A stretch of DNA of 64,000 nt from Candidatus Kaiserbacteria bacterium (GCA_016699245.1 CP064968.1:576317-640316), one strand, 5' to 3'. Counted from the first letter of the stretch, positions 31,468-58,196 are shown. The notes: generated from the sequence alone by a model not told the origin. Program-made: numbers and translations.

Positions 31468-32193
31468 TTAGATGGTGGCTCCACTGGGGAGATTCATTTC
31501 AGATTTGTACTTCTCGATAACTTCAGGATGTTTGCCTTCTTTGCATTCTGCGACAAATGTATTCGCTTCTGCGCTGTCGGGGAATGTCATATAGGAAAGG
31601 GCTCCTTCGCATATGACGTCCGCGTTTAATTTTCCAGAAACATGAGTCTGCCCATTAAATGCTTTAAGCGCGTTGGATTCTACAATACGCTCTGCTTCCT
31701 CATATCCCTCATGGTAATCAAAGTTCCAGCGCGGAGGAAGCGCGAATACGTAAAGATTATTTCTTCCTAGTTCAGTTGCGAGTATAGGAGCAGCTGATAC
31801 AGAAAAATCTTCAGCGATGTATGAATCCCATTGAGCCAAGGTGAAAACCATGACAGGAATATCTTCATACGGAAGTGTTGCGGTCCACTTTGGATTTCGG
31901 ATCAAAAGTGTAACCCCTGTTTGTGTACTTTCCGTGGACGTTAAGGGATTCCCTTCCCACGTGTTTTCTACAATGGAATATCCTTCCCAGTTTTGAGGGA
32001 GTGAAAAGGTAAATCCGAAGTCAGTATTGCTATATACGATAGAGGTGCTCGAAGCAGTGGGTTCCTGTACCGGCACTGTTACTTTATTTTTGTCACGAAG
32101 AGAATATCCTACTATTCCTAATACCATCAGACTTACGACGACGAGTAGTATAGAGATTATTTTGTTGCTTTTCATGTCTAAAGTGTACCACAA
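31468..32193 (-). CDS. Secreted hypothetical protein
   Basis: N-terminal TM/signal. No recognised motif. Confidence 0.5.
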   Translation of the reverse strand: MWYTLDMKSNKIISILLVVVSLMVLGIVGYSLRDKNKVTVPVQEPTASSTSIVYSNTDFGFTFSLPQNWEGYSIVENTWEGNPLTSTESTQTGVTLLIRNPKWTATLPYEDIPVMVFTLAQWDSYIAEDFSVSAAPILATELGRNNLYVFALPPRWNFDYHEGYEEAERIVESNALKAFNGQTHVSGKLNADVICEGALSYMTFPDSAEANTFVAECKEGKHPEVIEKYKSEMNLPSGATI

Positions 32194-32462
32194 AAAACAA
32201 TATCATTTTAGTTGTGTCAAGGCTGCGGGCCATCTGGGACGATGTTCGAACTTTTGTATTTAATGAATCTACTGTATAGTCACACTTGAGTGCTTGGATT
32301 ACCAATCTCTATGTCCGGTGTCGACAACAGGTTGAGAGCACAAGTAAACCTGCTGCCCACAGCCACGACAAACGACGGCCGTAACTATAACGGTCATCTG
32401 GTGTCCAAGCACTCACCCGCCACCTTTAATGGTGGCTTTTTCTTTCATAAAACGAGCTGGCC

Positions 32463-33038
32463 TTATGGGAGGATGTTAGAACCATCCTTCTCTAGAAAAT
32501 CTTTAATCTGCAGATTAGTCATTGGCGCTGATATTTTTCCAGAAAGATACTTTATCGTAACCACATGATGCTCCTCATCCCATGAATTGATACAATCCAA
32601 AGCAAGGATCACCTCGTAATCTCTCTGATATGCATCTATTACTGCCATTCTGACGCATGCATGCGTATTGATCCCTGATATGATGAGTGTATCTATTCCA
32701 AGCGCCTGAAGCATCTCATCAAGGTTAGTTTTATAGAACGGACTATACCTCCTTTTAATAATTTCTAAATCGTACGTCTGATGGTCAAGACCATCCAAAA
32801 GCTTGCTCCCTTCAGTTCCAGCAACAACAAATCTCTTACCTAATTTGCGATCGCCTATGAAGGCATCACTTCCATCAGGTTTCATTTCCTGCCTGACCCA
32901 AATGATCGGTACGCCATGCTCCCGTATTATTCCAGACAGAATATTTATCTTTGGAACTAAATCACTTTGAATTGCATTAAGTTCTACTGACTCAAAAAAA
33001 TCCTTTTGAAGATCAATGATGAGTAAAGCTGGTTTCAT
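32463..33038 (-). CDS. Isochorismatase-family cysteine hydrolase
   Basis: ALLIIDLQKDF (the catalytic Asp region), and a GINTHACV region containing the catalytic Cys. Confidence 0.7.
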   Translation of the reverse strand: MKPALLIIDLQKDFFESVELNAIQSDLVPKINILSGIIREHGVPIIWVRQEMKPDGSDAFIGDRKLGKRFVVAGTEGSKLLDGLDHQTYDLEIIKRRYSPFYKTNLDEMLQALGIDTLIISGINTHACVRMAVIDAYQRDYEVILALDCINSWDEEHHVVTIKYLSGKISAPMTNLQIKDFLEKDGSNILP

Positions 33039-33179
33039 ATTGCGTTAAGTGTATCAAAGTTCAAAAGTAAAACTCTTGATCTAATTCAACCTCAAATAAG
33101 GCTGGATGACGTGCTGGCCATCTGGGACGATGTTCGAACTTTTTTACAAACTAATCATTTCGTATACTATAATTAAGAA

Positions 33180-33977
33180 ATGAAAACTTGGCTGATTGGA
33201 AGCGACTTGGATGGAACACTGATCTATCCAGATAATTCTCCTGAAGTAAATCTGGGTACAAAAGCTTTTAACTTAATAATCCAAAAGCATAGAGAATCAC
33301 ATACTTTAGCCTACGTAACTGGCCGTCACCTTGAAAGAGCTAAAGAAGGAGTAAAAGAAGCTGGTCTTATTGAGCCAGATTTTTATATCTGTGATGTCGG
33401 AACCACTATCTATGAACAAAATGTCTTAACTGGAGCTTTTTCTCTTGACCAAGTTTATAGGGATCAACTTACAAAATCTTGGCAAGAAACCACAAAAGAC
33501 AAATTGATTGATTGGCTACAAAATTTTCCTTTCCTTACCCTACAAGAAGATAATAGACAGGGTGAATTTAAACTGTGTTACTACGTTTCTTCCGACATTG
33601 AGCGTGAATCATTTGAAAATTCTGTTATTAAACAGATAACAGAGGAATTTAAACTTCAAGCGATATACAGCACTGACCCAAATAATAATATTGGCTACTT
33701 AGATATCCTTCCTAAAGGAGCATCTAAAGAATCTGCATTAAACTTTCTAGCTCAAAAGACTAATATTTCTAAAGATAGAATTGTCTATGCTGGAGACAGT
33801 GGTAACGACTTAGCTGTCTGCAAAGCGGGAATAAAATTTATCATTCCTCAAAAAGCCAGTGAGGAAGTTAATTCTTTTTTCTTATCACCAGAAAATTCTA
33901 GTTGTATTTATTATAAGGTTACAGAGCCCTTTTGCTTTGGTTTACTTGAAGGACTCCGTTACTTTAAAGTCTTTTAG
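33180..33977 (+). CDS. HAD-IIB family hydrolase (sucrose-phosphatase / Cof-like)
   Basis: DLDGTL motif I, and motif III/IV YAGDSGNDLAV. A TTTACA-17 nt-ACTATAAT promoter-like sequence lies between motif copy 4 and the ATG. Confidence 0.7.
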   Translation: MKTWLIGSDLDGTLIYPDNSPEVNLGTKAFNLIIQKHRESHTLAYVTGRHLERAKEGVKEAGLIEPDFYICDVGTTIYEQNVLTGAFSLDQVYRDQLTKSWQETTKDKLIDWLQNFPFLTLQEDNRQGEFKLCYYVSSDIERESFENSVIKQITEEFKLQAIYSTDPNNNIGYLDILPKGASKESALNFLAQKTNISKDRIVYAGDSGNDLAVCKAGIKFIIPQKASEEVNSFFLSPENSSCIYYKVTEPFCFGLLEGLRYFKVF

Positions 33978-34196
33978 AAAATCTATAGTTGTATTGCTGG
34001 CCGTCTGGGACGATGTTAGAACTTTTTATACAACAAAAAAGTAAATATTTGCAAAATGCGTTACAATTAAAACTATATGGGCAGAAAAAAGAATGTAACT
34101 TGCACATCGGTATTCTAGGTATGCGGATTTCTCTTTTTTTTATATGCGAAATTTTGGTCCACCTCACTATCAATCCAGTCATGGGCAGAAGTCTCA

Positions 34197-34472
34197 ATGC
34201 CAATAACAGCTTATCTGTCGAGTACTGTTGTTATAGCGATGATGCTTTGGTTTGCTATGCAAAGAAGTAATAGTGTATGGCAAAAGACTGTATGGATACT
34301 TTTCGTAGCATTAATCATCGGTGGAGTTGGAAGCTATGTATGGAGAGGCAACACACTAGTAAATCAGTGCACATCACAAGGTGGAATACTTGACCAGCAA
34401 AATAAAGTTACTTCTTTTAATTTCAAATGCGAGCAAGTTGGCACAAATAAAATATTGCCTCTTGTGAATTAA
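34197..34472 (+). CDS. Small membrane protein
   Basis: 91 aa with two TM helices. Confidence 0.4.
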   Translation: MPITAYLSSTVVIAMMLWFAMQRSNSVWQKTVWILFVALIIGGVGSYVWRGNTLVNQCTSQGGILDQQNKVTSFNFKCEQVGTNKILPLVN

Positions 34473-34527
34473 TATTATGTTAGAAGACTAAAAAGCGATT
34501 GCTGGCCGTCTGGGACGATGTGAGAAC

Positions 34528-35004
34528 TTATTTAACAAGTTCAAGAGCGACTGATGCATAGCGATATACATCATCACGTAAACGTTCATCGTTTGTATGC
34601 ATTTGATTTAATTCTTCTTTTGTTACCCAAACACACTGAGCATTTTTACTTGCCTCCTCTTGGGGTTTTATTTCACGACTATTCGACTTTGCAAAAAAAA
34701 TAAAGGAGGAATGGTCGTGGTGCTCGTTAATTGAATGTCTATTAACAAAGATCGGTGGTACCAAATCTTTATTGATGTCAAAGTCTTGTTTGGTCCACGT
34801 ACTTGGTCCGATCAATTCGACTTTCAAACCAACCTCCTCCCAAACTTCTCGAAGTACTGCCTCATTAATATCTTCTCCTGGATCCACATGACCACCTGGA
34901 GCAATCCAGAAATTATATTTTTCGTGTAAACGTAAAAGCACGGCTTTGTCGTTCACGATATACGCATCAGTACAAAGATCGACATAATAATTTAAATGAG
35001 CCAT
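34528..35004 (-). CDS. NUDIX hydrolase
   Basis: Nudix box GGHVDPGEDINEAVLREVWEEVGL. Confidence 0.75.
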   Translation of the reverse strand: MAHLNYYVDLCTDAYIVNDKAVLLRLHEKYNFWIAPGGHVDPGEDINEAVLREVWEEVGLKVELIGPSTWTKQDFDINKDLVPPIFVNRHSINEHHDHSSFIFFAKSNSREIKPQEEASKNAQCVWVTKEELNQMHTNDERLRDDVYRYASVALELVK

Positions 35005-35070
35005 ATCAAAAGTATACCAGACCTTCGACTTGAACCAATTTTTTATTGAAAGGTATGGCTAAAATAAAGA

Positions 35071-35089
35071 GCTGCCGATCAGGGACTCG
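35071..35089 (+). repeat. 19-nt exact copy of the tRNA-Gln 3' end (attR-like direct repeat)
   Basis: gctgccgatcagggactcg is identical to 44643-44661. An inverted partial copy lies at 35196-35207, and a GAACAGTCCCCCGGACTGTT-type palindromic module at 35161-35183. Confidence 0.7.
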
Positions 35090-35538
35090 GTCACGAATCA
35101 CTAAGTATATTTGTTCGTCTACGACTCCAAATCTACTAAGTGTTCTCGACCCCGGCGGGTAAAACAGTCCCCCGGACTGTTTTCTTCCGCCTTTCGAGTC
35201 CCTAGGCAACAAACACAAAAATAACCGACTTTTGTCGGTTATTTTTGTGTTAGCTGGCAGCCTTGGACGATTTACGAACGCCAAAGTGGGTAGATTTGGT
35301 GGAATACCCCTCTCTCACACTCCAAGATATCCTTGAATTTACTCACTAATTCAGACAGAGAGGTTGAAGGGCCTAGAGTGATGAATGCTGATTACTATAC
35401 AAATTCGTAACTTTGCGGGGGTTTTTTCATTTACTTTCGAACTTTTGTTTTTGAGTGGGGGTACCCCCCGAATTGACCCCACACGTCTTGCACAAAGTAC
35501 CCAACTATAGATGGAGAAAAAAATCTGGTAAATTTTGG

Positions 35539-35544
35539 TATAAT
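35539..35544 (+). promoter_or_regulatory. Extended -10 element TGgTATAAT, 7 nt upstream of the ATG
   Basis: tggtataat directly precedes the start codon at 35551. Confidence 0.4.
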
Positions 35545-35550
35545 TTCTAT

Positions 35551-36534
35551 ATGGAAAAACCAAAAATATCAAATGTCGAACATAATCAAAATTTAAGTAA
35601 CATTCATCAATTGGATGAGGCTGTGAGGCAATTATATAGTAAGCCTGAGAACGACGAAGAGCTTGTGGAGCGAGTTAGGATTCTGAAAGAGATCCCTGAA
35701 AATTTAAATACACCTAAGGTGCTTGTTAAACTCGGTGACCCTACAAAGGCAGACAAGTTTATATATATGCACGATGATGAGGGGAAGGAGTATCTTATCG
35801 CACTACCCATAAACAAGATGGATTATCATAGGCAGATAGCGAATTTTGCGAGGAAGCTCTATGGAAAAGATTTTAAAGTCGATGGTGGTGGGTATCTAAG
35901 TGTGCGTGATGGCAATCTTGTTGTGCATGGTAGTTCTGGATCATACGGAAATTTTCCCCCTCGCGTTGTGTCAATTTTAAAGGAATCATTTCCAGACATT
36001 AATGTAGTTGATGAATCTCCATCTATTGTTGAACAAGATAAGATAAACAAGGAGCACAAAGCAGTTCTTGAGTCTATTGAAGATCCAGTTCAATCTGAAT
36101 TGTATTCTGTAGTAACGGGAGATCTTGGTACGAAAATGGGGTACGACTCCACGACACTTCCGCGTCCAGTTGATAATGCTGACGAGATGTCACATATGAT
36201 ATACAGAAGTGAAAATGGTGGTTCCTTTGGAGTCGACACGCTTTTTGTGGCTCGAAGAAAGGAAGACCACACGTTAGCAGTTAATGAAGTAGCTGTTACA
36301 CGATGGGCTATTCATGATGTGAGTGCACGAGCAGAGGGAGATACGATTATATTTGAGTTCACCACTAACGGCGAAAAGCAGGTACTATCTTTACCTATGA
36401 GTGAAGTCGACAAGAGAGAAGCTTATACGGACTTAAATGAACCAGAGAAAATCATTCTCAAAATGTATAAAGACAACCAAGCTATCTACAATACTGGGAC
36501 AAAACCAAAAATAATGCACGGCTCAGCACACTAA
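35551..36534 (+). CDS. Hypothetical protein (328 aa), divergent from the vWA/AAA+ operon
   Basis: No recognised motif. Start placed at MEKPKISN. Confidence 0.55.
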   Translation: MEKPKISNVEHNQNLSNIHQLDEAVRQLYSKPENDEELVERVRILKEIPENLNTPKVLVKLGDPTKADKFIYMHDDEGKEYLIALPINKMDYHRQIANFARKLYGKDFKVDGGGYLSVRDGNLVVHGSSGSYGNFPPRVVSILKESFPDINVVDESPSIVEQDKINKEHKAVLESIEDPVQSELYSVVTGDLGTKMGYDSTTLPRPVDNADEMSHMIYRSENGGSFGVDTLFVARRKEDHTLAVNEVAVTRWAIHDVSARAEGDTIIFEFTTNGEKQVLSLPMSEVDKREAYTDLNEPEKIILKMYKDNQAIYNTGTKPKIMHGSAH

Positions 36535-36546
36535 TTAATTAGTGTG

Positions 36547-38796
36547 CTATATCTTTACTCCTCCAAGGTACTTCTTAAGAGCTTCGGAGAGCACTGGGAG
36601 TAGTTTTTGCATATCCACGCCAACAACCATTCCGCGTTTCTCATTCTCATCACTATTCCATGCATAGTTAAATGCTCTTTCTTCAGATCTACCGACTTGA
36701 CCGATCTGAAATGCGCTCGCATGAACACCAACTTCCACCATTTTTTTAACTGCTTCTTGAGTTGCTCCAGCATCGCTTGATCCACCGTCTGTAATCTCGA
36801 AGAGTATATCTAGAATCTTCCCTTGTTGTATTCTTTGTTTACTCACTTCATCTTGAGTTTCGAGTATATGATTTAAAGCGACATGATCATAGGTGTTTCC
36901 ATTTTCAGCACCAGACTGCTTCAATGTATTAAGAATCTCAATCGTCGGGTCTTCTTCTCCACTTTCTGAATCAAGCTTCTTGATGATCGATAAAGTATTA
37001 CTGAATCCGAGTACCTGTGTTTCGACTTTGAGCTTTGAACCTGTACTACCTCGAGTAAGATTGAGCATCTCGTTAAATTGTTGAAGCGATCTGAGAATGA
37101 GAACTAGGGTCTTGGCAAGCACATTTTGCTTCGTTTCATCATCCATTGAACCTGATTTGTCCACCACAAGACGAACCCTAATGACCTCGGGCTTTTCAAC
37201 TGTAGATTCCTTCGTTATCACCTTATCGTATATTCTTGGCGAGGACTGACCTGCATAGATTGCCCCCATATTGTCTATGACGGAGTCGATATTTAAGTCA
37301 AAACCAGATGAGTGTGCACTATCTCTTGTGTGTGTAATTTCAATCGAACTTCCCGTAATGATATTTTGCCACAACTCAGTAAGATCATTCAGATACGGAA
37401 GAATACTCTCCTCAATCCTTCGGAGAGAACGCAATTCTTGATATATGTTTCTACCTTGAATTTCGTGCTGGTTTGCCCAATCTTTGTCTAAGTTTTCCTG
37501 AAAGGCACGTTCACTCTTCGGTTGTTCTTTTACTTTTCCATCCTTCTGAGCGTCTTTTGCCTTTTCTTCCTCTTTACGTTCAGTAAATTTCTTTATCTCG
37601 TCCTCATTGAGTTGATCAGGGCTTTGTGATTCAAACTTTTCATGAATATTTGACCACTCTTTAAATTTTTGCTCTTGTCGCTCTTTTGACGAAGTTCCAG
37701 TTGAATTAGTATTTTGTTGCTCGTTACTAGCAGTACCATCTGATTTTTTGTCCTCATTTCCGCTACCACTTTGTGACTTATCCGTCCCTTGATCCTCAGG
37801 ATTCTTATTTTCTGACTGACCTTTATCTTCAGTACTTTCTTGATTTTTCTGTTCAGGACTTTCATTACCCTGATTTTGTTCTTGCCCATTATCTTGGTTA
37901 GGATTGGATCCGTCATTCTTCTTATCCTCAGGATTTGAATCCTTATTCTCGTTAACATCCTTTTGTATCAAAGCTTCGTATATTGGTTGGATATACCTCT
38001 TTAAGTACTCATGTCGTGCTGACGCTTTTGCATCAGTTCGACCTGGAACCATAAAAGTATGGATGAGTGACTCCACGTCATATTCTTTATTGCCGACAGT
38101 AATTTGGGTATCTAGTGCCTCTCTCACCTCAGCATCTACAACAATTTCCTCGCTAGGGAGCATGGCTTTCCGAAGTAGATAATATGCAAACTGAAGATGT
38201 CGGGGGATTTGTGAAATTGAACCATCGTCTCCTTGTACATTAGTAAAATCTGAATCTTTAAATAATTTTTCTCGGTACAAATCTTCCACATGCTTTCCAC
38301 CTTGTCTTTTGCTTTCGTAATAACTTGCCCGTCTTGATACCACTTTATTTACATAGACATCATCCAAACAGTTGAATAACGTGTGGTACGTCTTATAGGC
38401 AAGTTGCGGATCCATCTCTGTTTCCTTTGAAAGTGTATCCGCCTTTCCTTTCATGTATTCAAAACTCGCAAGCAATCCTTCTTTGTCAGTAGCAAAATCT
38501 CTAAAATGTGAAAGTTCATGAAATACTGCCCAGAGTATTTGCTCTTTATTGTACCCTCGTTCAAAAAACCATTTGCTGTCGAGTTGTACGACCCCATTCT
38601 CGTAATCAATAAGAAATTGGTCCTCCATTTTGAATCTGAGCGAGACATCCTCGGCAAAGGAGTTGAGGAGTCTTCTGTGGCTATTCACAAAATCCTCACC
38701 CTGCTTTTTATAGGCTTCAATTTCCATCTCTACAGATGGTCGTTTTATTTGATCTATCGAATTGAATTTAAACTTTGGAGGCATATTAATAACCAC
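36547..38796 (-). CDS. von Willebrand factor A domain protein with an N-terminal HExxH zincin-like region and an acidic low-complexity linker
   Basis: FHELSHF near residue 90. A ~110-aa N/Q/E/K-rich linker. C-terminal vWA with MIDAS motif VVDKSGSMDD. It overlaps the upstream AAA+ gene by 11 nt, consistent with one operon. Confidence 0.7.
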   Translation of the reverse strand: MVINMPPKFKFNSIDQIKRPSVEMEIEAYKKQGEDFVNSHRRLLNSFAEDVSLRFKMEDQFLIDYENGVVQLDSKWFFERGYNKEQILWAVFHELSHFRDFATDKEGLLASFEYMKGKADTLSKETEMDPQLAYKTYHTLFNCLDDVYVNKVVSRRASYYESKRQGGKHVEDLYREKLFKDSDFTNVQGDDGSISQIPRHLQFAYYLLRKAMLPSEEIVVDAEVREALDTQITVGNKEYDVESLIHTFMVPGRTDAKASARHEYLKRYIQPIYEALIQKDVNENKDSNPEDKKNDGSNPNQDNGQEQNQGNESPEQKNQESTEDKGQSENKNPEDQGTDKSQSGSGNEDKKSDGTASNEQQNTNSTGTSSKERQEQKFKEWSNIHEKFESQSPDQLNEDEIKKFTERKEEEKAKDAQKDGKVKEQPKSERAFQENLDKDWANQHEIQGRNIYQELRSLRRIEESILPYLNDLTELWQNIITGSSIEITHTRDSAHSSGFDLNIDSVIDNMGAIYAGQSSPRIYDKVITKESTVEKPEVIRVRLVVDKSGSMDDETKQNVLAKTLVLILRSLQQFNEMLNLTRGSTGSKLKVETQVLGFSNTLSIIKKLDSESGEEDPTIEILNTLKQSGAENGNTYDHVALNHILETQDEVSKQRIQQGKILDILFEITDGGSSDAGATQEAVKKMVEVGVHASAFQIGQVGRSEERAFNYAWNSDENEKRGMVVGVDMQKLLPVLSEALKKYLGGVKI

Positions 38797-41557
38797 GTGC
38801 TATTTGTGGTGCGACAAATCGGTGTGTAGAGAAACTCCCGTTTACTTTTGAGACTTTCCATTCTTGATCTCCAATGCGTTTTACTGAAATAAGGACATTT
38901 TCATCACTCTTTAATTTTATACAAAAAAGGACGGGGTCATCTGCGTACATTGATCCAAAACTCTTCTCAAGATGCTCATTGTCTCTCCATCTTTCTTCAT
39001 AGTAAATAAACAGTTTAATCATCCATGGCTCAGTGAATATGAAGTCACTCAATAATTCTTTCAGTTTATCGATAGAAACAGTGTATGCAGGAAGTCTTTG
39101 ATCTTCTCTCCAATCAGCACCGTAATACTGATTAAATTCAAAACTACTCTTATTTTTAAAGATATGTGCGGCCTGTTCAAAAACTTGTTCGACTTCTGGA
39201 TCTAAGGACATTTTTAGCTTTTTAAATTCTTGAGATTCTTTTTCGTCCATATCAAATGCAGTAAATTGAGATCCGCGATTGATCATACTTCTACCAGTCC
39301 TTGGCTGAAGTGTTTTTGAGTCAGTACCTGGTTTCAAGTTTGGGAAATCAGGAGTGCCACAATATAATTCTCGTTCACGTCTTTCCTTGGTGAATTCGAT
39401 AAATTTACTAAACCCCTCGTCGAGCTTACTTTGAGCATCTTTGTCACCCAATGCAACCCGAACTCTTAACTCAAGTCGTTGTCCCAGCACTTCTTTAACG
39501 TTGTGTAATTCAGACCCAAAATCTTCTTCTAGTTGGTGCAAGAAGTCAGTATGATATTTAACAAATGCTTCATTGATCTTAAATTTCTCTGTGTATGTTG
39601 CAGCAATAGATGGAAAAAGATTCTTCTCACTTTCTATCACTCTTTCGACAGAAGCAACCGCTTGTTCTACTGAATCATACTTACCAGGATCATCTAAAGC
39701 TTTTACTACCTCAGAAAACGTGCTCTGCAACAATTGTTCTTCAGTTTCGTTTAAAAGATCCGTGGTCGTATTAATCTCTTCCTTCTCTCCATTTTTTAGA
39801 TGCTTTCTTAATTTAAAGACAAGCTCCTTAATTTTTGAGAGAGATTCATTACCATACTCCAAAACAGGAGCGAGTGAGGTCTTCAGATCGGATGAAACAC
39901 CTTCTGCTGAGACAAATTTTTGCAGTGTTCTTATGTTATTTTCCAGTTTCAGAATTGTGTATTCACTTTTCTTTATTCTTTCAAAATCGTACGGAAATTC
40001 ATTTCTTTCAGGAGCTTTTCCGTATACATTTTCAACAACTTCGCGTACGGTAGTAAACTGTAGATCCCTCCCTTTATTTTCAGGAGTGTGGATCGCTGAG
40101 TCAAATGTTCCAGCCTTTGCTACAGCCTCTTTCCACGAAGCATCAGTGAGAAATCCTTCTGCTTGAAGTTGTTGGACGAAAAACTTTACGTCCATTGCAT
40201 TTGTGAGTGGTGCGATTAACTCTTTATAAATATAGAAATCAAATTCGTTTTCAAAGTTATCTCGTTTCCACGACTCAATAACTTGCTTCACGTCACGCAT
40301 GCTTACGACCGACGATGTCGCAGTAAGTGGTACATTTAAGCCAGCCTGTCCCGAAAACAGCTTCCCATCGCGCTGACCACTGTATACTTCCTGGACCTTT
40401 CGTATAAACTTTGCCAATCGCCACAAATCATCGAAAGCATCTTCTGGAGCGTTCACATCCCCTTTATCGTTCATCAGCATCGCGATCATAAGCGTATACA
40501 ATTCATTTCCTCGCTCAGCCGTTTCTTGGTATGTGCCCTCTGTGGCTTGCGGTAAATAATCGTAATCTATCGGACGGATTCTGTTTACAAAATCCGCAGA
40601 CAATTCAAAAAGTCCTTTATACCTATCTATCGCCTTTGGATTGCGGTTTAAGTTTCCAGTCATAATGACTCCGAATCCTGGTCTTGCAATCATTTTTGTC
40701 CCCTTAGGGTCGCCGATAACAGGAACTTCTTCTCCACGTTTCGCATTAATAATTATGTCATTAAGTGATTTAAGTATCTCAGGTGGAATTGCGTTAACTT
40801 CTTCGATAATGAGAGGAATTCCTTGATCCATTGCCCTATATAGGGGACCCAAAACAAAATTTGCCTGTGGACCACGTTCATCTGACGTTAAATCAATTTT
40901 CCCAAATATCTTTGTTTCATCAATACCTTTTGCACCCGCTATTCTTTCTGGCTCAACACTTAACACCTCACTACAAAAATATTTAGCAACAGACGATTTA
41001 CCTGAACCCGTTTCACCATTCAGAAAAGGGATCTTATCAATTGCATAGTAATTATCTTGAAGCTCATCTAATTTCTTTTCTGCGTATGGTGTAAGCACAA
41101 AATCACCAGACTTTAACTCCTTTCGATACTCTCGTAATTCAAGGGCATTTCGAACAATATATGCTTCTGGGTTCGACCACATAAGCTCTGCGATTGAAGT
41201 TTCTACACCCTCGATCTCAGTATTAATCTTCTTCATTGCTTCAATCACCTGCGGTGGTCGATTGAGTGCGGAATTGATTGGAAAACGCTCCTCAAATTTT
41301 AACTTTGCATCTTTGAGAGCCACAACTCTCTTATCAAAGACATGAAATGCCCGTGCGGCCTCTTTAACATTTTTTAATCTAAGCTCAATAAGAGCATTCT
41401 CTTCAACAGAAAAATCAACATCATTTGTAATAGTTTCTGTCAAAAAGACACGTAAATCGTCAGGTAGATCCAGATCAGTTGCACTAGACAAATTCTCACG
41501 CGTAACGATTTCTTTTTTGTTTACTGATTCCTCAACAGGTTTCCAACTCTCTTTCAT
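38786..41557 (-). CDS. Large AAA+ ATPase (MoxR/AAA_5-like core), paralog 1
   Basis: Walker A LNGETGSGKSS, Walker B PLIIEEVNA, sensor-1 VIMTGNLN. 923 aa with long N- and C-terminal extensions. Confidence 0.7.
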   Translation of the reverse strand: MKESWKPVEESVNKKEIVTRENLSSATDLDLPDDLRVFLTETITNDVDFSVEENALIELRLKNVKEAARAFHVFDKRVVALKDAKLKFEERFPINSALNRPPQVIEAMKKINTEIEGVETSIAELMWSNPEAYIVRNALELREYRKELKSGDFVLTPYAEKKLDELQDNYYAIDKIPFLNGETGSGKSSVAKYFCSEVLSVEPERIAGAKGIDETKIFGKIDLTSDERGPQANFVLGPLYRAMDQGIPLIIEEVNAIPPEILKSLNDIIINAKRGEEVPVIGDPKGTKMIARPGFGVIMTGNLNRNPKAIDRYKGLFELSADFVNRIRPIDYDYLPQATEGTYQETAERGNELYTLMIAMLMNDKGDVNAPEDAFDDLWRLAKFIRKVQEVYSGQRDGKLFSGQAGLNVPLTATSSVVSMRDVKQVIESWKRDNFENEFDFYIYKELIAPLTNAMDVKFFVQQLQAEGFLTDASWKEAVAKAGTFDSAIHTPENKGRDLQFTTVREVVENVYGKAPERNEFPYDFERIKKSEYTILKLENNIRTLQKFVSAEGVSSDLKTSLAPVLEYGNESLSKIKELVFKLRKHLKNGEKEEINTTTDLLNETEEQLLQSTFSEVVKALDDPGKYDSVEQAVASVERVIESEKNLFPSIAATYTEKFKINEAFVKYHTDFLHQLEEDFGSELHNVKEVLGQRLELRVRVALGDKDAQSKLDEGFSKFIEFTKERRERELYCGTPDFPNLKPGTDSKTLQPRTGRSMINRGSQFTAFDMDEKESQEFKKLKMSLDPEVEQVFEQAAHIFKNKSSFEFNQYYGADWREDQRLPAYTVSIDKLKELLSDFIFTEPWMIKLFIYYEERWRDNEHLEKSFGSMYADDPVLFCIKLKSDENVLISVKRIGDQEWKVSKVNGSFSTHRFVAPQIARGY

Positions 41558-41608
41558 AGTACTGTTGATTATAGCTCATTAAATATGAATTTGTTTGTCA
41601 TTATTCCC

Positions 41609-44470
41609 CTAGTTAAAAGCTTTTCCTGTGATTGTTGGAGCAACGAACTGCTGGGCAGAAATCGATGGCTGGGTAACTTTAGTGATACTCCATTCATGAT
41701 CCCCAGTCCTGTCTAAAGCAAGTAAGACATCCTCACCATTTTTTTGGGCAACACAAAATACTGCTGGGAAGCTATACATGTATGCCTTTGCATAATCTTC
41801 AGAGTATTCGTACAATTTCTCGGAATGGTATATAAATCCTTCAACCATCCATGTGTCACTTTTGGAAAAACCACTGAGTAGCGTGTTAATTTTTTTCGTA
41901 TCAATCTCGAATGATTTCGGGTTTGGATTACCATTCTCGTCTCTCGTATCGAAGAAATCTTTTTGAAAGAAAAGCTGAAAAGTAACTGCACTTTCTTCTT
42001 TAAAAACTCTTCTCGCATTTGCAAAGACTTCTTCGACACCAGCATCCTTATGAATGATTGTTTTTTCCAACAACTCCTTGCGGTAATAAGCTAGTCCTTT
42101 TTCATCTCTGAAATGAGGGTTAAAAATAGCTGGAATTTGATCAAGCTCAATTATTTCACTTTTCTCATCAAGATTCGGATATACATCTGTTCTCAGTGTC
42201 CAGCGCAAGTCGTTATGTTTACGAAAGAAGAAATTAAAATCACTCATTAAGACAGATGCGGGATGTTTTACGTCCTCCAATGTGTACATATCAGCCCCAA
42301 GTCTTAATTCTAAATCAAGTATACGATTTATTATTTCATTCACACGATCAGCAAGAGTCAGGTCCGAATGAAAATTTTTGACTAGTTCATTTTTTTCCTC
42401 CAGCAATCCTTCCAATTCGACAATCAATTCTTTTTTACCAAGTATCTGATCTGGATTCCTTTTTGTTTCATACTCTTCGATTCTGTTGCTTGCTGCAATA
42501 TAGTCCTCAGTGTATACATCCTTTAATTCTGACCATAACGTTTCTTCTTTTTTGATTCTTTCCTTCCATAAATCCACGAACTCCCCAGCCTTTATTATCC
42601 GTCTATTTTGAAGAGAATCAACGGTTTTAAGTACTTTTTCGATTGATCCTGCACGAAGTTGAGTCAATGACTCACTTAGCTGTTCACCGAGTATACGAAG
42701 TTTCTTTCCGTCTCGTGTTTGGTGTGCATCCTCCATTTCTTTTACTAGAGTGGTAACGTCTGCTTCAAGTTCTGCAAGACCATCACGAATGCCACGAAAT
42801 TGATTATTTTCTGCACCCTCAAGAAATGCGTCCATTTTTTCTTTTTGTGACTGTACAGTGCAGAGTTCGCTCTTTGCATAGGTAATAACATTAGGATCAT
42901 ACTGTGGGTACTCCTTTCTCTCAGGAATTTTCCCGTAAACATTTTGTACAACGTCGCGAACAGTCGAAAACTGAATTTCTTGCCCCTTATTTTCAGGAGC
43001 ATGCATAGCAGAATCGAATGTCCCAGCTTTTGAAACGACATCCTTCCATGACTGATCAGTAAGGAAACCTTCAGACTGAAGTTGTTGAACAAAAAACTTT
43101 ACATCCATTGCATTAGTGAGCGGTGCAATAAGTTCCTTATATACGTAGTAATCAAACTCTCTTTCAAAATTATCTCGCTTCCATGACTCAATAACCTGCT
43201 TCACATCGCGCATACTCACGACTGAAGATGTGGCGGTCACAGGCATATTCAGTCCGCCTTGTCCTGAAAATAATTTCCCGTCTCGCTGACCGCTGTAGAC
43301 TTCTTGTACTTTTCGGACAAACTTTGCCAAACGCCACAAATCATCGAACGCCTCTTTAGGTGCATTTACATCACCCTTATCGTTCATGAGCATTGCGATC
43401 ATGAGTGTGTAAAGTTCATTACTTTTTCCCGCCTCTTCAATGTAGTTACCTTCAGTTGATTGGGGTAGATAATCGTAATCTATTGGACGAACGCGATTAA
43501 CAAAATCGGCAGAAAGTTCAAATAGCCCTTTGTATCGATCGATAGCCTTTGGATTGCGATTGAGGTTTCCGGTCATGATCACGCCGAATCCATCCTTAGC
43601 CTTTACTTTTGAACCCTTGGGGTCACCAATAACAGATACCTCCTCACCCTTTTTCGCATTGATAATTATGTCATTGAGTGATTTTAGGATCTCAGGCGGA
43701 ATTGCATTAACTTCTTCAATAATGAGGGGAACTCCTTTTTCCATTGCACGATAAAGGGGACCTGGCACAAAGCGTGCCTGTGGTCCGTTCTCGTCTGAAG
43801 TAAGATCAATTTTGCCAAATATTTTTGTTTCATCAATTCCTTTTGCTCCCGCAATTCGCTCTGGTTCTACCTCAAGTACTTCAGCGCAGAAATACTTGGC
43901 GATTGATGATTTCCCTGACCCCGTCTCTCCATTTAGAAAGGGGATCTTATCTATTGCGTAGTAGTTATCTTGGAGCTCGTCTATCTTTCTCTCAGCGTAT
44001 GGAGTCAAAACAAAATCCCCCGACTTTAATTGCTTTCTGTACTCACGCAACTCTAAGGCATTACGCACCACATATGCTTCTGGATTTGATTGCATTAATT
44101 CTGCAGTCGAGTTTTCTATTTCCGATATTTCCGTATCAATTTTTCTCATCGCCAAAATTACTTGCGATGGACGGTTTTGTGCAGAATTGATTGGAAATTT
44201 TTCCTCAAACCTAAGCTTTGCGTGTTTAAGTGAATCTATCTTTTTGTCAAAAGCACGAAACGCTCGAGCGGCCTTCCTTACATTTTGGATTCTTAGTTCA
44301 GCAAGTACGGTTTCCTCTGCTGTTAAACCAACCTCATCTGGTATGGTTTCTGTAATGTATGACTGGAGTTCTGGAGGGAGATCAAGATCCTCGGATCGAG
44401 CTAGATTTTCACGTGCAATAACTTCCTTTTCATTGACTGACTTTTCAATCGGTTTCCAGTTTTCTTTCAT
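41609..44470 (-). CDS. Large AAA+ ATPase (MoxR/AAA_5-like core), paralog 2
   Basis: Collinear with paralog 1, with the same Walker A/B and sensor-1 motifs. Start moved to MKENWKPIEK by alignment with paralog 1. Confidence 0.7.
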   Translation of the reverse strand: MKENWKPIEKSVNEKEVIARENLARSEDLDLPPELQSYITETIPDEVGLTAEETVLAELRIQNVRKAARAFRAFDKKIDSLKHAKLRFEEKFPINSAQNRPSQVILAMRKIDTEISEIENSTAELMQSNPEAYVVRNALELREYRKQLKSGDFVLTPYAERKIDELQDNYYAIDKIPFLNGETGSGKSSIAKYFCAEVLEVEPERIAGAKGIDETKIFGKIDLTSDENGPQARFVPGPLYRAMEKGVPLIIEEVNAIPPEILKSLNDIIINAKKGEEVSVIGDPKGSKVKAKDGFGVIMTGNLNRNPKAIDRYKGLFELSADFVNRVRPIDYDYLPQSTEGNYIEEAGKSNELYTLMIAMLMNDKGDVNAPKEAFDDLWRLAKFVRKVQEVYSGQRDGKLFSGQGGLNMPVTATSSVVSMRDVKQVIESWKRDNFEREFDYYVYKELIAPLTNAMDVKFFVQQLQSEGFLTDQSWKDVVSKAGTFDSAMHAPENKGQEIQFSTVRDVVQNVYGKIPERKEYPQYDPNVITYAKSELCTVQSQKEKMDAFLEGAENNQFRGIRDGLAELEADVTTLVKEMEDAHQTRDGKKLRILGEQLSESLTQLRAGSIEKVLKTVDSLQNRRIIKAGEFVDLWKERIKKEETLWSELKDVYTEDYIAASNRIEEYETKRNPDQILGKKELIVELEGLLEEKNELVKNFHSDLTLADRVNEIINRILDLELRLGADMYTLEDVKHPASVLMSDFNFFFRKHNDLRWTLRTDVYPNLDEKSEIIELDQIPAIFNPHFRDEKGLAYYRKELLEKTIIHKDAGVEEVFANARRVFKEESAVTFQLFFQKDFFDTRDENGNPNPKSFEIDTKKINTLLSGFSKSDTWMVEGFIYHSEKLYEYSEDYAKAYMYSFPAVFCVAQKNGEDVLLALDRTGDHEWSITKVTQPSISAQQFVAPTITGKAFN

Positions 44471-44523
44471 AATGTCCATTATTATACCCAAAAAATACTG
44501 GGTAGTTTGTTGGTCCCAAAAAC

Positions 44524-44549
44524 AAAATCCACCCAAATGGGTGGATTTT
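44524..44549 (-). terminator. Terminator hairpin downstream of tRNA-Gln
   Basis: aaaatccaccc aaat gggtggatttt. Confidence 0.55.
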
Positions 44550-44640
44550 TAGTTTGGATACTGCTCTCAGCAGGTATGCCATTTCAGAATAGTCCTCGGG
44601 TGGTTTCGACGCGTCTCGTGCGCGATAACCTACCTCGAGT

Positions 44641-44714
44641 TGGCTGCCGATCAGGGACTCGAACCCCAATGACTTCCTCCAGAGGGAAGCATCCTACCAT
44701 TAGATGAATCGGCA
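44641..44714 (-). tRNA. tRNA-Gln (anticodon CTG), CCA encoded
   Basis: Manual cloverleaf: U1-A72 acceptor pair with G73, as in bacterial tRNA-Gln. Anticodon loop CTCTGGA. T-loop TTCGAGT. Confidence 0.7.
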
Positions 44715-44719
44715 ATGTG

Positions 44720-45224
44720 ATATGTGCGTTTGTACAAGGTTCTCGTTTGGACTCGATTCCTACAGAATCTGTTCAGGTTGTCGATACTTTATTTCGCATG
44801 CACTCATAAATTATCTGGCAACCTTCTTGAAAAGTCTCCCAGACTTTTCAAGCCCCAATGACTTCCTCCAGAGGGAAGCATCCTACCATTAGATGAATCG
44901 GCAATGTTTGTTTTGTACTTTGTTTGTTCTCGTTTGGACTCGATCATTACATGATCAGTACACGTTGTCGATATTTTTACAAAATATCTGGCAACGTCCT
45001 GAAATGATACCCCATATCATTTCAGCCCCAATGACTTTCTCCCGGGGGAAGAATCCCACCATTAGATGAATCGGCAATATTTTGTACGTCGCCCAGATTA
45101 CTTTTTTTGGGATGCGTGTGTGCATCGTCTGTTTTTCTTCCGTGGGGAAGAAAAACAGACGGGCTCAGAAATTATAATTGCTTCGCTCTTTAATTTCTGG
45201 CCACCATTAGATGAATCGGCAATG
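44720..45224 (-). repeat. Two and a half tandem ~180-bp units, each ending in a copy of the 5' ~55 nt of tRNA-Gln
   Basis: Fragments at 44853-44906 (near exact), 45026-45078 (diverged) and 45201-45224 (short). The spacers share blocks ttctcgtttggactcgat...gttgtcgata...atctggcaac. Confidence 0.7.
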
Positions 45225-45299
45225 TGTATTGCTTTGGAACTCCCAAATCAATAGCGTCTGAATTCTAACAGATTTTTCAATTTTTGCTATACTTTTATC

Positions 45300-45917
45300 A
45301 TGCAAAAAATACGAGTATTTATTATCCATGGTGGGATGACTTTTAAAAGTAAAAAGGATTATATTACGTACCTTACGACCCGAGAAATTTCTATTGATCG
45401 TAAGCCAAACTGGACTGAAGAATATCTGAATACCTCTCTCGGAAAACAGTTTGAGATAGTCCGGCTCCGTATGCCAACCCCCGACAACGCCCATTATGAT
45501 GAATGGAAAATTCACTTTGAGCGCTATCTTCCCTTCTTCACGAAGCAAGTCATTCTTATTGGAGAATCTCTTGGTGGCATTTTCCTTGCACGATATCTTT
45601 CTGAGAACCGCCTTCCACAAAAAGCACTTGCGACATATCTCGTTTGTCCTCCTTTTGATAACTCTCTTTCTGATGAAGACTTGGTGAATGGCTTCAAACT
45701 CAAACCAGACCTTTCCCTTCTTCCTGAAAACACGAATCATCTTTCAATTCTCTTCTCCGCAGATGATGATGTCGTCCCCGTGCAACATGCAGAAAAATAT
45801 CGTGAAAAACTTCCCACCGCAATGATACGGATACTCAAAGGAAAAAATGGACATTTCAACGTGAGCAAATTACCCGAAATAGTAAAAATGATTCTCAAAG
45901 ATACGCGTCCACGATAA
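45300..45917 (+). CDS. Alpha/beta-fold serine hydrolase (YdeN/RBBP9-like)
   Basis: GESLGG nucleophile elbow (GxSxG). Confidence 0.6.
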   Translation: MQKIRVFIIHGGMTFKSKKDYITYLTTREISIDRKPNWTEEYLNTSLGKQFEIVRLRMPTPDNAHYDEWKIHFERYLPFFTKQVILIGESLGGIFLARYLSENRLPQKALATYLVCPPFDNSLSDEDLVNGFKLKPDLSLLPENTNHLSILFSADDDVVPVQHAEKYREKLPTAMIRILKGKNGHFNVSKLPEIVKMILKDTRPR

Positions 45918-45973
45918 CACTATAAGACACAAATTATCTTGTCTACATTCAGTAGATACCTGCTATACTGGAG

Positions 45974-46627
45974 TTGATGATATTACTCAGACTTCATCAT
46001 ATAAATCCTTTTTATATGATGGGTATTTTCCTTGTTGTAGCGCAACTCTTTATTTTTAGTGCTGTCCTTCACGATCCTTCAATAGGTATCTTTTTATTCT
46101 GGTCATGTAACAATTTCTGTATTTTCTTGATGTATGCTTGTTATAAGCAGGATATGCAGATGATCAAGGGTATTAGTTACCTCGGATTAGTGTCACAGAT
46201 ACTCTGGATATTAGATTTTGGCTCGCACATATTAGGATTTGATTTGTCTGGAATCACTGACTACATATACCTTGAAGGATTCACATATACCAATGAGGTT
46301 TCAGTAGGAGTTCATATAATTATTCCTATTGCGATACTTGTTTTTAGTTTTAGAGTAAAACCAATGTATACATCGCTTCTATATGCTCTTCCCTATATCG
46401 TTTTTCTCTACATCGTCACGCTCATATGGACACCACCTGTAGAAGATATTAACTGCGTCTTTTATGGATGTGGCAACGATCAATACCTCCCCTATAATAT
46501 ATTGTTATGGCCATTGTATGCAGTTATTTCAACCTTGCTGAGTTACGGTATTCACAGCCTTTTGTATTACGGGTGGAAAAAGACTGTTGTCAGTTTAAGG
46601 TACATAGCAACGCGCAAGCATGCATGA
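45974..46627 (+). CDS. Multi-pass membrane protein
   Basis: 217 aa with about 6 hydrophobic helices. Confidence 0.45.
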   Translation: MMILLRLHHINPFYMMGIFLVVAQLFIFSAVLHDPSIGIFLFWSCNNFCIFLMYACYKQDMQMIKGISYLGLVSQILWILDFGSHILGFDLSGITDYIYLEGFTYTNEVSVGVHIIIPIAILVFSFRVKPMYTSLLYALPYIVFLYIVTLIWTPPVEDINCVFYGCGNDQYLPYNILLWPLYAVISTLLSYGIHSLLYYGWKKTVVSLRYIATRKHA

Positions 46628-55065: not shown

Positions 55066-56025
55066 CTATGTTAACTCCGCCTCTGCGTCCAGAAATACTT
55101 GTATATCGCCATTAAGGACCTTGTCGGTGTCTCGCACTTCCACCTCGGTACGATGATCTTTTACCATTTGATATGGATGGAGTACGTACGAGCGAATCTG
55201 ACTCCCCCATTCTATCTTCACCGTCTTTTCTATTGAAAGTCCCTTGAGTTCACGTGCGTGTTGCTCTTCGGTAAACGCAAAGACTTTTCCTGCAAGGAGG
55301 GTGAGTGCCTTTTCTTTATTTTGCTGCTGACTACGCTCTGAAGAAACGTGCACTGAAATGCGCGTGGGCGTGTGGGTTGCACGCACCGCGGTCTCACGTT
55401 TATTTACATTCTGTCCACCCGCGCCACCTGACTTTGCATACGTAATTTCAACATCCTCCTCCGCTAGGTCTACTTCCTTCATATCAACTACCTGTGGTGA
55501 GACTTCTACGAGCGCAAATGATGTCTGCCGTTTACCATTCGCATTAAAGGGCGACATGCGTACCAAGCGATGCACCCCTGACTCACGACGCAACGTCCCA
55601 TACGCCTCCTTCCCACTCACCTCAAATACAATATTGCGATACCCGTTTTCATTGTTTGCATTTGAATCAAGGATGGTAAGCCCCCAGCCTCTCCCTTCTG
55701 CATAGCGCTTATACATCTCCACAAGCATACGTGCAAAATCCTCGGCATCGTCGCCCCCTGCCCCTGCCACTATAGTAATGACTGCGGGTGCTTTGTCGTA
55801 TTTTCCTTTCCCTAAAGCCACATCTTTAAGAGATTCGAGTTCCTTAAACATAGCCTGAGCCTTCGCCGGCTCATTCCAAAAATCAGGCCGCACCATTGCT
55901 TCCTCAATTTCTTTTATTCTTTCCTCATGAGACTGTGCCATTTGTATGAGTATAACAGAAATGTGGCCGGCTCAAAGAGAGCCGGCCACAGGGGTGCGAT
56001 TGTTACATCGCAGTATTTCAATCAT
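55066..56025 (-). CDS. prfB: Peptide chain release factor 2, with an in-frame UGA at codon 18
   Basis: SPF and GGQ motifs in the main ORF (55066-55941). An upstream 17-codon ORF MIEILRCNNRTPVAGSL ends in CTT TGA (TGA at 55972-55974). It matches the RF2 N-terminus and is in the same frame as the main ORF. Confidence 0.7.
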
Positions 56026-56787: not shown

Positions 56788-57666
56788 TTATGTAAGGAGC
56801 AATTCAGCAACAAGCTTGTCTGCGACACGATCTGCTTCATCACGAGCAATAGTCATCTTCGCAAGAATCATTTTTCTCTCATCCTCTGAGATCCCTAGTC
56901 TAATCGGTTTAGCATGTAAATCAAAATAATGTTTGGCTACTCCTGAAAGGTCTTTCTTATCGAATAGAGAAGGTGGTACCGGAGACTTCTTACCATACGA
57001 AACCAACGGCACATTTAGTTCAGTTTCCATTGCCCTCGCTACTTTGTACGAATTAATATTTGTGGTGAGTATAACAGGTGTGATGTTATTTCCTTGCAAA
57101 GCTTTTATCACTGGAATAAGGCCCTCTCCACTTTCTATAAATTCAGTCACAATGAGTGCGTCAGAGATATTTAAGGAAGACTCAGTTTTTAATTCTGCAA
57201 TGTACGCACTTATCTCAGCTTCCTTTTTTGCCACTCCTAATTCTAGCTCCTTAAGAGATAATCCTTCTTTATTGCTATGTATTGACGTCCCGGCAATAAA
57301 ATGGGTGGGGATTTTTGGTCGACCGGTATTTTCATAAGCGACGTTGATAATCTTCCTCACGATGAGTGCTGGGATTCTGCCAGATGTATCGTCACCAATA
57401 AGTAACTGGAATTCTCCATTCTCTATCTTTTCGAGAACCGGTTCAAGCATTTTTCCTATAGACTCGTGTAATTCACTAACGATCCGTCTTATTTCCACAA
57501 CTGTCTCATCCCCAAGGAATCTAGCCGCCTGCTCTACTTGGTTAGAATCAGACTCTATCGAGAAATCCTGTGATTGTTCGGATAATTCTTCTTTATCAAT
57601 TGATGATTCCCCAGACACTGTCTCGGGTACACTTAATTTTTTATTACCAAACCCTTCGTGAATCAT
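56788..57666 (-). CDS. Hypothetical protein (possible PRTase-like fold)
   Basis: LLIGDDTSGRIPALIVRK is weakly reminiscent of a PRPP-binding loop. Confidence 0.4.
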   Translation of the reverse strand: MIHEGFGNKKLSVPETVSGESSIDKEELSEQSQDFSIESDSNQVEQAARFLGDETVVEIRRIVSELHESIGKMLEPVLEKIENGEFQLLIGDDTSGRIPALIVRKIINVAYENTGRPKIPTHFIAGTSIHSNKEGLSLKELELGVAKKEAEISAYIAELKTESSLNISDALIVTEFIESGEGLIPVIKALQGNNITPVILTTNINSYKVARAMETELNVPLVSYGKKSPVPPSLFDKKDLSGVAKHYFDLHAKPIRLGISEDERKMILAKMTIARDEADRVADKLVAELLLT

Positions 57667-57698
57667 ATTATGTTTTACCCATCACTTCGTCCTTCGTG

Positions 57699-57975
57699 AG
57701 CCATCTCCCGGGATTGAACCGGGGACCTCATCCTTCGCTTACACCCCAATTTACAAAAAGTGATATATGGGGACTAGACTGTATCTTACGCATACCTTTC
57801 GGCGTAGCGTCCCTTGTCAGTCGTTCGGGCCTCCACCACGTGGTGATTGCCACGGTCTTAACTCCACATGAGCCGTTAACCGTTATTCAGGATTCGCTTG
57901 CCTGTTTCCGGGCAAGTGGGCAAGAAGTCAATGCGACTTACCATGGATGCGCTCTACCGACTGAGCTAAGATGGC
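57699..57975 (-). tRNA. tRNA-Thr (anticodon GGT) interrupted by a 204-nt intron in the anticodon loop
   Basis: Exons 57940-57975 and 57699-57735 splice to a canonical 73-nt tRNA-Thr(GGU), closely similar to E. coli tRNA-Thr(GGU). The intron (57736-57939) follows U36 and ends in G. Confidence 0.65.
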
Positions 57976-58085
57976 TTCTTTCTGCTGCCGCAATTCGGTT
58001 ATTGCAGACAGTGACTAGAATACCAAATTGTTTGGTTGAAAACAAACGGTATCTATACTAGGATTGTGGAGTCGCCATAAAAATT

Positions 58086-58166: not shown

Positions 58167-58196
58167 AAAATAACTCTCCAAGGGGAGTTATTTTTA
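58167..58196. terminator. Hairpin terminator between tRNA-Thr(CGT) and the convergent ORF
   Basis: aaaataactctcc aa ggggagttattttt. Confidence 0.5.

Follow-up and report, generated by a model that had tools for sequence, protein, structure and literature searches.

The closest described counterparts of the intron analysed here are the tRNA-Thr(GGU) introns at position 36/37 described from three members of a set of 95 complete Patescibacteria genomes (Nakagawa et al., mSystems 2026, PMC13011429). They are referred to as 'divergent group I introns', a term taken over from Castelle et al. (2018), and have a canonical-like length and predicted structure; they are missed by the Rfam model RF00028, an invisibility that is thus a published property of these introns, and are detected by a tFind model (PMC13011429). 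In the tree of that study the Thr introns are placed on long branches beside the IA-type tRNA introns of Patescibacteria. [quoted passage not shown] According to the literature, this type of split tRNA-Thr gene is also missed by tRNAscan-SE.

The number of known tRNA/intron settings had previously been raised from 4 to 21 (Williams, 2020, 10.1101/2020.01.27.920355), and the seed of that study contains an intron at the same site, Thr.5Ug (Rba53). The initial annotation of the locus described here regarded a tRNA-Thr intron at positions 36/37 as unusual. Given the Thr.5Ug seed sequence (10.1101/2020.01.27.920355), the three published genomes (PMC13011429) and at least 117 further cases reported below, this view could not be maintained. 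The gene analysed here is a tRNA-Thr(GGU) gene of Candidatus Kaiserbacteria that, with high confidence, carries a small group I intron without an ORF between U36 and A37.

Organisation of the split tRNA-Thr(GGU) gene

The stretch of DNA that was analysed (64 kb, in the following the window) originates from a Candidatus Kaiserbacteria bacterium (Patescibacteria group, Patescibacteria/Parcubacteria), and the bacterial housekeeping genes pyrG, ftsX, ftsE and prfB flank the locus. The split gene is located at 57699-57975 on the minus strand and is composed of a 36-nt exon, a 204-nt insert and a 37-nt exon. Exon 1 (57975-57940, minus strand; tRNA positions 1-36, assigned with ARAGORN on the spliced and the precursor sequence) reads GCCAUCUUAGCUCAGUCGGUAGAGCGCAUCCAUGGU in 5' to 3' direction and ends ...AUGGU, with the anticodon G34 G35 U36 at its end and U36 (57940) as the last nucleotide before the 5' splice site. 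The intron (57939-57736, minus strand; AAGUCG...GUAAGCG) follows directly after U36 and has a final G. Exon 2 (57735-57699, minus strand; positions 37-73, AAGGAUG...GGCU, ARAGORN) reads AAGGAUGAGGUCCCCGGUUCAAUCCCGGGAGAUGGCU in 5' to 3' direction and does not encode CCA.

Joining of the exons yielded a 73-nt sequence that was called by ARAGORN as tRNA-Thr(GGU) with a normal cloverleaf, and nucleotides 8-60 of the spliced tRNA were 85-87% identical to annotated tRNA-Thr genes in each of the 5,426 E. coli genomes. On the sense strand, the longest of the ORFs that overlap the intron had 41 aa, and the ORF list of the intron region contained no homing-endonuclease ORF. These data bear out the initial annotation, which had described a textbook, E. 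coli-like tRNA-Thr with a 204-nt insert after U36 that ends in G and lacks an ORF.

Due to an AA repeat in the window copy, the splice position is ambiguous by 2 nt, and ARAGORN in intron mode recognised the split tRNA-Thr(GGU) in the precursor with boundaries placed differently (191 nt). Position 36/37 was chosen because it is the sole option for which the intron of the window copy is preceded by U(-1) and terminates in G. Since many introns of homologous genes begin with G or U, the splice site is fixed at this position. The boundary also bears on a different type of insert, a protein-spliced bulge-helix-bulge (BHB) intron as in archaeal and eukaryal tRNA genes: the location in the anticodon loop and the 38/39 boundary offered by the intron mode of ARAGORN are compatible with it, whereas the homologues with non-A intron starts fix the site at 36/37 and not at the canonical 37/38. 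In addition, the host is a bacterium and BHB introns are not reported in bacteria (PMC13011429), and the conserved covarying helices described below are those of a group I core and not of a BHB motif. A group II intron or another mobile insertion was considered together with this explanation; 204 nt are far too small for group II, and neither RF00029 nor another Rfam family matched. We regard an insert of any of these kinds as extremely improbable and return to the group I intron in the following.

The split gene was called neither by ARAGORN in default mode nor by the Rfam tRNA model in the 64-kb window. As the gene is missed by both and, according to the literature, by tRNAscan-SE, a Patescibacteria genome appears to lack tRNA-Thr(GGU), and this apparent absence distorts completeness estimates and codon-usage inferences. 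Should no further GGU isoacceptor gene exist, these reduced genomes would depend on RNA-catalysed splicing for translating ACC and ACU codons. A 163-aa ORF with a GTG start (57570-58061, plus strand) runs antisense across the entire split gene. It is almost certainly spurious, because indels within the intron family are not multiples of three, although an annotation that overlooks the tRNA may list it as a gene.

Directly downstream of the split tRNA lies a 292-aa ORF with 100% identity to IPH92_03060 of Candidatus Kaiserbacteria bacterium; the search for relatives of this protein yielded no more than 11, most of them on short contigs. When the region was compared with GenBank phages by blastn, the neighbouring tRNA-Thr(CGU) gave the sole match, and the intron itself gave none. 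The release factor 2 ORF (55066-55941, minus strand) has just 291 aa and begins at position 87 of the PCRF profile; the N-terminal part is probably encoded in another frame and joined by programmed +1 frameshifting, as is usual for prfB. A solitary fragment with similarity to the 5' end of 23S rRNA (59186-59361, minus strand; LSU_rRNA_bacteria positions 46-180, 52.9 bits), with an additional weak 5.8S match, is located between tRNA-Asp and a 270-aa ORF without family match (58194-59006), and no other rRNA was found in the 64-kb window. The G+C content is 0.38-0.41 at 32000-46000 as compared to 0.44-0.49 across most of the remaining window. This stretch harbors tRNA-Gln(CUG) (44641-44714) and may represent an island.

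Secondary structure and covariation of the intron

With Rfam 15, no group I, group II or other family was assigned to the insert when the whole window was scanned at the gathering threshold, and scans of 901-nt and 296-nt slices left it without a meaningful match (RF00028 and RF00029 included). The Intron_gpI model thus failed to recover the proposed group I intron even at E<=10. Likewise, no Rfam family, RF00028 included, matched the insert at the gathering threshold in 11 homologous loci. Since the homologues and the published introns behave alike, this failure was taken as a limit of the model and not as evidence against group I. The minimum free energy (MFE) fold of the insert had a group-I-like layout with the right topology. 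Its energy was unremarkable (z = -1.1; 30 of 200 shuffles folded equally well), so that thermodynamics alone would not support a group I claim, and a case made from this single sequence would have depended on motifs fitted by hand.

The structure was examined in a MAFFT alignment of 116 distinct sequences with 285 columns (A1). The 44 invariant columns were concentrated in GAAUCCCGAAUAACGGUU, AGACCGU, CGAACGACUGACAAGGG and AAGAUACAGUCUAG. On this alignment, RNAalifold independently obtained P1, P2, P4, P5, P6/P6a, P7 (GACUG/CAGUC), P8 and P9, with compensation in 29 of 44 pairs. A P3 pseudoknot (CCY/RGG), a two-pair P9.0, formed by J7/9 and the two nucleotides preceding the omega-G, and an A-U pair flanking the bulged C in P7 were added by inspection. 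In the full structure of 50 pairs, 94.7% of the cells were paired, as compared to 77.3% in shuffles (0/500 reached the observed value) and 31-44% with slid partners. The covariation score was 0.491 versus 0.157 in shuffles and approximately 0.1 with slid partners, and compensatory changes were present in 35 of the 50 pairs. P4 and the five central pairs of P7 never vary and are uninformative for covariation. The resulting fold contains the core order P3-P4-P5-P6-P7-P3'-P8-P7' with the P3/P7 pseudoknot.

The P1 hairpin (57919-57942, minus strand) is formed by exon nucleotides G34 G35 U36 and the first intron nucleotides (57942-57938) with the guide UUGCC (57923-57919). In columns 4-8/26-30 of A1 the exon pairs are GC in 116/116, GC in 116/116 and UG in 115/116 sequences, followed by two covarying intron pairs; the splice site is marked by a U36.G wobble (columns 6/28) beside two invariant G-C exon pairs. 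A P10 pairing of CUU (57924-57922) with AAG of exon 2 is possible in the window copy and is not conserved in the family. The 3' exon is probably aligned by way of the tRNA anticodon stem, by analogy with the Anabaena intron, for which Zaug and co-workers reportedly described such a role in 1993. P2 (57895-57918, minus strand) has nine pairs, all of which are compensated, and a GNRA-type loop (GAAA, 57908-57905; GAAA, GUAA or GCAA across the family).

The 5' strand of P3 (CCU, 57889-57891, minus strand) is followed by J3/4 (GAAUA, 57888-57884), and its 3' strand (GGG) is located at 57811-57813 (minus strand). According to the pair counts in A1, columns 61-63/169-171 are 99.1% paired, and each of the three pairs shows double changes. 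The P4-P5-P6 domain (57828-57883, minus strand), defined by RNAalifold and pair counts, consists of P4 (ACGGUU/GACCGU, 57883-57878/57857-57852), which is invariant and 100% paired, P5 (57873-57861), which covaries, and P6 (GGC/GCC, 57851-57849/57830-57828), which encloses P6a and covaries together with it. The outer pair of P6 is GC in 95, AU in 14, CG in six and UA in one of the sequences.

The gactg...cagtc pairing that had been proposed as P7 was recovered and could be extended to A(C)GACUG/CAGUCU. Its 5' strand (57818-57824, minus strand) carries the bulged C at 57823 and is followed by J7/3 (ACAA, 57817-57814). J8/7 (AAGAUA, 57787-57782) and the 3' strand of P7 (CAGUCU, 57781-57776; both minus strand) together are the equivalent of the classical 'S' element, and the corresponding columns 215-226 are almost invariant. 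Five pairs of P7 are invariant and show no covariation; in the flanking pair (columns 158/226), AU is replaced by GC in two sequences and kept in the other 114. By analogy with known group I introns, the pair G57822-C57777 next to the bulge is the predicted guanosine-binding site.

P8 (ACGC...GCGU, 57788-57810, minus strand) has four pairs, all compensated, and a loop that contains GAAA in the window copy. P9.0 (GU 57774-57773/GC 57738-57737, minus strand) encloses the P9 hairpin (57772-57744), in which all six pairs covary. In P9.0 itself (columns 228-229/276-277), 97% of the cells are paired, with exchanges between GC and AU and between CG and UA and double changes in 40 and 48 sequences. 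The last intron nucleotide, the omega-G (57736, minus strand), is G in 118/118 listed members of the family including the window copy and was not demanded by the pattern used to find them. With the U.G pair in P1, the omega-G and all core helices present in a fold that was tested for covariation on 116 sequences, construction of the P1-P9 structure, as suggested in the initial annotation, gave the full group I anatomy.

By analogy, splicing would follow the standard group I pathway. In the folded precursor, G34 G35 U36 of exon 1 would pair with the internal guide GCC in P1, with the U36.G wobble at the splice site. An external guanosine, occupying the P7 G-C pair next to the bulged C, would attack the U36-A bond. 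The terminal omega-G, placed by P9.0, would then occupy the same site, and attack of the 3'-OH of U36 on the omega-G/A37 bond would ligate the exons. The expected products are a 73-nt tRNA with the anticodon loop A-U-G-G-U-A-A and a free 204-nt intron.

The exon pairing in P1 and the P3 helix comprise only 3 bp each, and this raises the question of whether the RNA still splices by itself. A group-I-derived intron might instead need the help of a protein cofactor or of a chaperone, or might persist as a relic that is spliced poorly or not at all and leaves the tRNA gene crippled. Besides the very short pairings, the divergent core that is invisible to RF00028, the small number of peripheral elements and the restriction of the published splicing assays to Asn and Asp introns (PMC13011429) are in line with such a loss. 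However, a dead relic would not be expected to show purifying selection on its entire fold in at least 117 species, as seen in the 35 of 50 compensated pairs, the omega-G in 118/118 members and the U.G pair in 115/116 sequences. In the exons, the anticodon and acceptor stems have stayed perfect. Moreover, the Azoarcus intron, which is of similar size and has a 3-bp P1, self-splices efficiently. Loss of self-splicing is therefore considered improbable, and an intact group I intron remains the preferred interpretation.

Distribution of the intron family and related phage introns

One genome per GTDB species was scanned with an exon-anchored pattern (D-arm, 8 nt, GGT, gap of 138-168, AYAGTC, gap of 41-71, T-arm), in which the intron is constrained solely by the six-base P7-type word AYAGTC. 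The scan returned at least 120 loci, three of which were adjacent tRNA pairs and not split genes. At least 117 other tRNA-Thr(GGU) genes with an insert of 176-214 nt after U36 were thereby identified in GTDB species genomes. Anticodon stems were intact in all listed members and acceptor stems in 116 of 118, the sequence being too short in the rest. Nearly all listed members are Patescibacteria metagenome-assembled genomes (MAGs), with groups including Saccharibacteria, Paceibacteria, Kaiser-, Wolfe-, Nomura- and Jorgensenbacteria.

The window sequence likewise derives from a metagenome-assembled genome, in which two tRNA halves could have been joined by unrelated sequence during assembly. The two halves, however, form one perfect cloverleaf, the adjacent gene is identical in a short-read Logan assembly, and the same architecture is present in the at least 117 independent assemblies, which include complete chromosomes and one cultured isolate. 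An assembly artefact can hence be given hardly any credence, and the gene is treated below as a genuine split gene.

A profile that was built with nhmmer from 110 homologues, without the window copy and the five sequences closest to it, gave a single match in the window (57730-57945, minus strand, E = 3.6e-45). The closest relative among the matches listed was L034 with 98% identity, while the median identity to the family was 65%. A covariance model of the family (R1), in the building of which the window copy was included, also found one copy in the window (182.9 bits). As in the window, prfB was found close to the gene in more than 40 of the at least 120 loci (8 kb each), and this association of prfB with the split tRNA in many genomes indicates vertical inheritance. 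As host tRNA and insertion site do not change, an endonuclease gene is lacking and prfB adjoins in many genomes, the intron family looks vertically inherited in Patescibacteria.

The listed members also include a cultured Bacteroidota isolate, Niastella populi CCTCC AB 208238, in which a tRNA-Thr(GGU) gene with the family intron was found on a 300-kb contig (L038:5228-5420, minus strand). Next to this gene, a T4SS coupling protein is encoded that is most closely related to proteins from Chitinophagaceae, and the copy may reside on a conjugative element. N. populi offers a culturable system for splicing tests. Other labels outside Patescibacteria, taken from the record labels alone, were a Pedobacter MAG (L006), a Gammaproteobacteria MAG (L050) and a Bdellovibrionales MAG (L067).

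The free-standing LAGLIDADG gene that had been noted 2 kb away from the intron is a LAGLIDADG-domain ORF at 59988-60665 (minus strand), between tRNA-Met(CAU) (61158-61084) and tRNA-Asp(GUC) (59921-59846). A link between this gene and the intron was rejected: homologues were rare, being present in six of the at least 120 loci listed, and were always located between tRNA-Met and tRNA-Asp where the flanks were called. This order was observed again, with homologues of 39-53% identity, in the Patescibacteria loci L003, L004, L008 and L046. In L043 a canonical group I intron (RF00028, 52.5 bits) comes after the LAGLIDADG homologue, and an intact tRNA-Asp was not called. The tRNA-Met/tRNA-Asp placement in five genomes including the window ties the gene to the tRNA-Asp site, and it lies near tRNA-Thr only because the tRNA cluster is syntenic. 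The gene may encode an endonuclease that was left beside, or acts on, the known tRNA-Asp intron site.

The IMG/VR database was scanned with the core of the tRNA-Thr intron itself, and the matches were scored with R1. Sixteen contigs matched at 44-126 bits, and none of these introns was located in a tRNA. The phage introns share CGAACGACUGACAAG...GAUACAGUCUA with the tRNA-Thr family and, like it, were not detected by RF00028. In contrast to the tRNA-Thr introns, they interrupt protein-coding genes or the template repeat of a diversity-generating retroelement (DGR), in some cases carry an ORF, and keep a canonical P4-P5. In six of 11 cases the 5' exon ends with GGU opposite GCCCC of the intron; in a seventh (L121), CAGGU is one base off the model-derived boundary. 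The AACGACU...AGUCU core resembles the T4 td and Twort IA2 introns. The P9 module of the phage introns matches known Herelleviridae introns. A link to the described introns of this family was also considered and is weak, as the Romulus terminase intron scored 8.9 bits with R1.

Among the interrupted genes were those for tape-measure proteins (L127 and L134, in one case inside the SLT motif) and a major head protein (L128). A protein of approximately 950 aa with a DxDGD motif was interrupted in L121, L131 and L136 by an intron that carries an ORF. L126 carries two introns approximately 500 nt apart, of which one is divergent (4401-4605) and the other is of the canonical RF00028 type (5099-5361).

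A DGR template repeat was split by a family intron at L124:13423-13974 (= L135:9630-10181) and in L133 (minus strand; reverse-complement 1336-1931). The introns have a length of 193 nt (L124) and 187 nt (L133) and scored 101 and 98 bits with R1. Upon splicing, the repeat matches an uninterrupted variable repeat that lies approximately 200 nt upstream and forms the 3' end of a long ORF; a reverse transcriptase ORF follows. Differences between the repeats lay at template adenines in 15 of 15 (L124) and 13 of 14 positions (L133), on both sides of the intron site. Since the variable repeat is uninterrupted and adenine differences occur on both sides of the intron, the DGR cDNA must be copied from spliced RNA. 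A literature search found introns in DGR template repeats only as engineered tags.

A more far-reaching reading of these data, to which we assign a rather low probability, is that of a distinct, Rfam-invisible group I clade that would be common to Patescibacteria tRNA-Thr(GGU), where it would be fixed and perhaps ancient, to the tRNA-Thr gene beside conjugation genes in N. populi, and to phage genes for tape measure and major head proteins and the DGR template repeat, many members having the same GGU/GCC P1. If such a clade exists, it would fit a spread between phage and cellular RNA via reverse splicing into GGU-containing sites, and ACC/ACU decoding in Patescibacteria would depend on a ribozyme.

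Comparison with described group I introns

The IC3 introns of Azoarcus tRNA-Ile(CAU) and Agrobacterium tRNA-Arg(CCU) occupy the same site after position 36 (Reinhold-Hurek & Shub, 1992) and share with the window intron a size of about 200 nt, a short P1, a GNRA-capped P2, the omega-G and the lack of an ORF. The core is different: J3/4-P4, J6/7-P7 and J8/7-P7' read GAAUAACGGUU, CGAACGACUG and AAGAUACAGUCU in the window intron, as compared to AAAUUCGGGGAAA, GUAGAGACUA and AAGG.AUAGUCC in IC3. Unlike IC3 introns, which are found by RF00028, the window intron has no CCUAAG...UAUGG receptor, a loop L9 that is not GNRA and no RF00028 match, and since its core also differs from all IC3 seed rows, it was not assigned to IC3. 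The Thr.5Ug intron of Rba53 likewise occupies the same site as the window intron, but has a canonical IC3-like core (Williams, 2020).

The IA-type Asn and Asp introns of Patescibacteria are found in the same phylum and in the same kind of host gene. They differ from the window intron in their site (35/36), in being detected by RF00028 and in sometimes carrying HNH genes (PMC13011429), and they have the usual GAAUUGCGGGAA/GUUCAGAGACUAG/GAGAUAGUCC elements. The P7.1/P7.2 helices of IA1/IA2 introns are absent from the tRNA-Thr family, as the P3' columns 169-171 directly abut P8 column 172 in A1. Subgroup IA is said, after Michel and Westhof in 1990, to have these extra helices between P3' and P8. 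A CM-based classification nevertheless places the tRNA-Thr family near IA (PMC13011429).

The divergent introns of Nakagawa et al. agree with the window intron in isoacceptor, site and phylum, and also in their similar length, the absence of an endonuclease gene and the invisibility to RF00028. The window intron is one more copy of this class, published between 2018 and 2026, and the finding in itself is no new biology. The three genomes listed in that study do not include that of the Kaiserbacteria copy; one of them probably corresponds to the complete Wolfebacteria genome CP011209.1, the source of homologue L036. The tRNA-Thr intron family is large and tightly conserved, and has no public Rfam covariance model. 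As compared to the three published cases, it is represented here by at least 117 species-level genomes and by helices from P1 to P9.0 that were tested for covariation.
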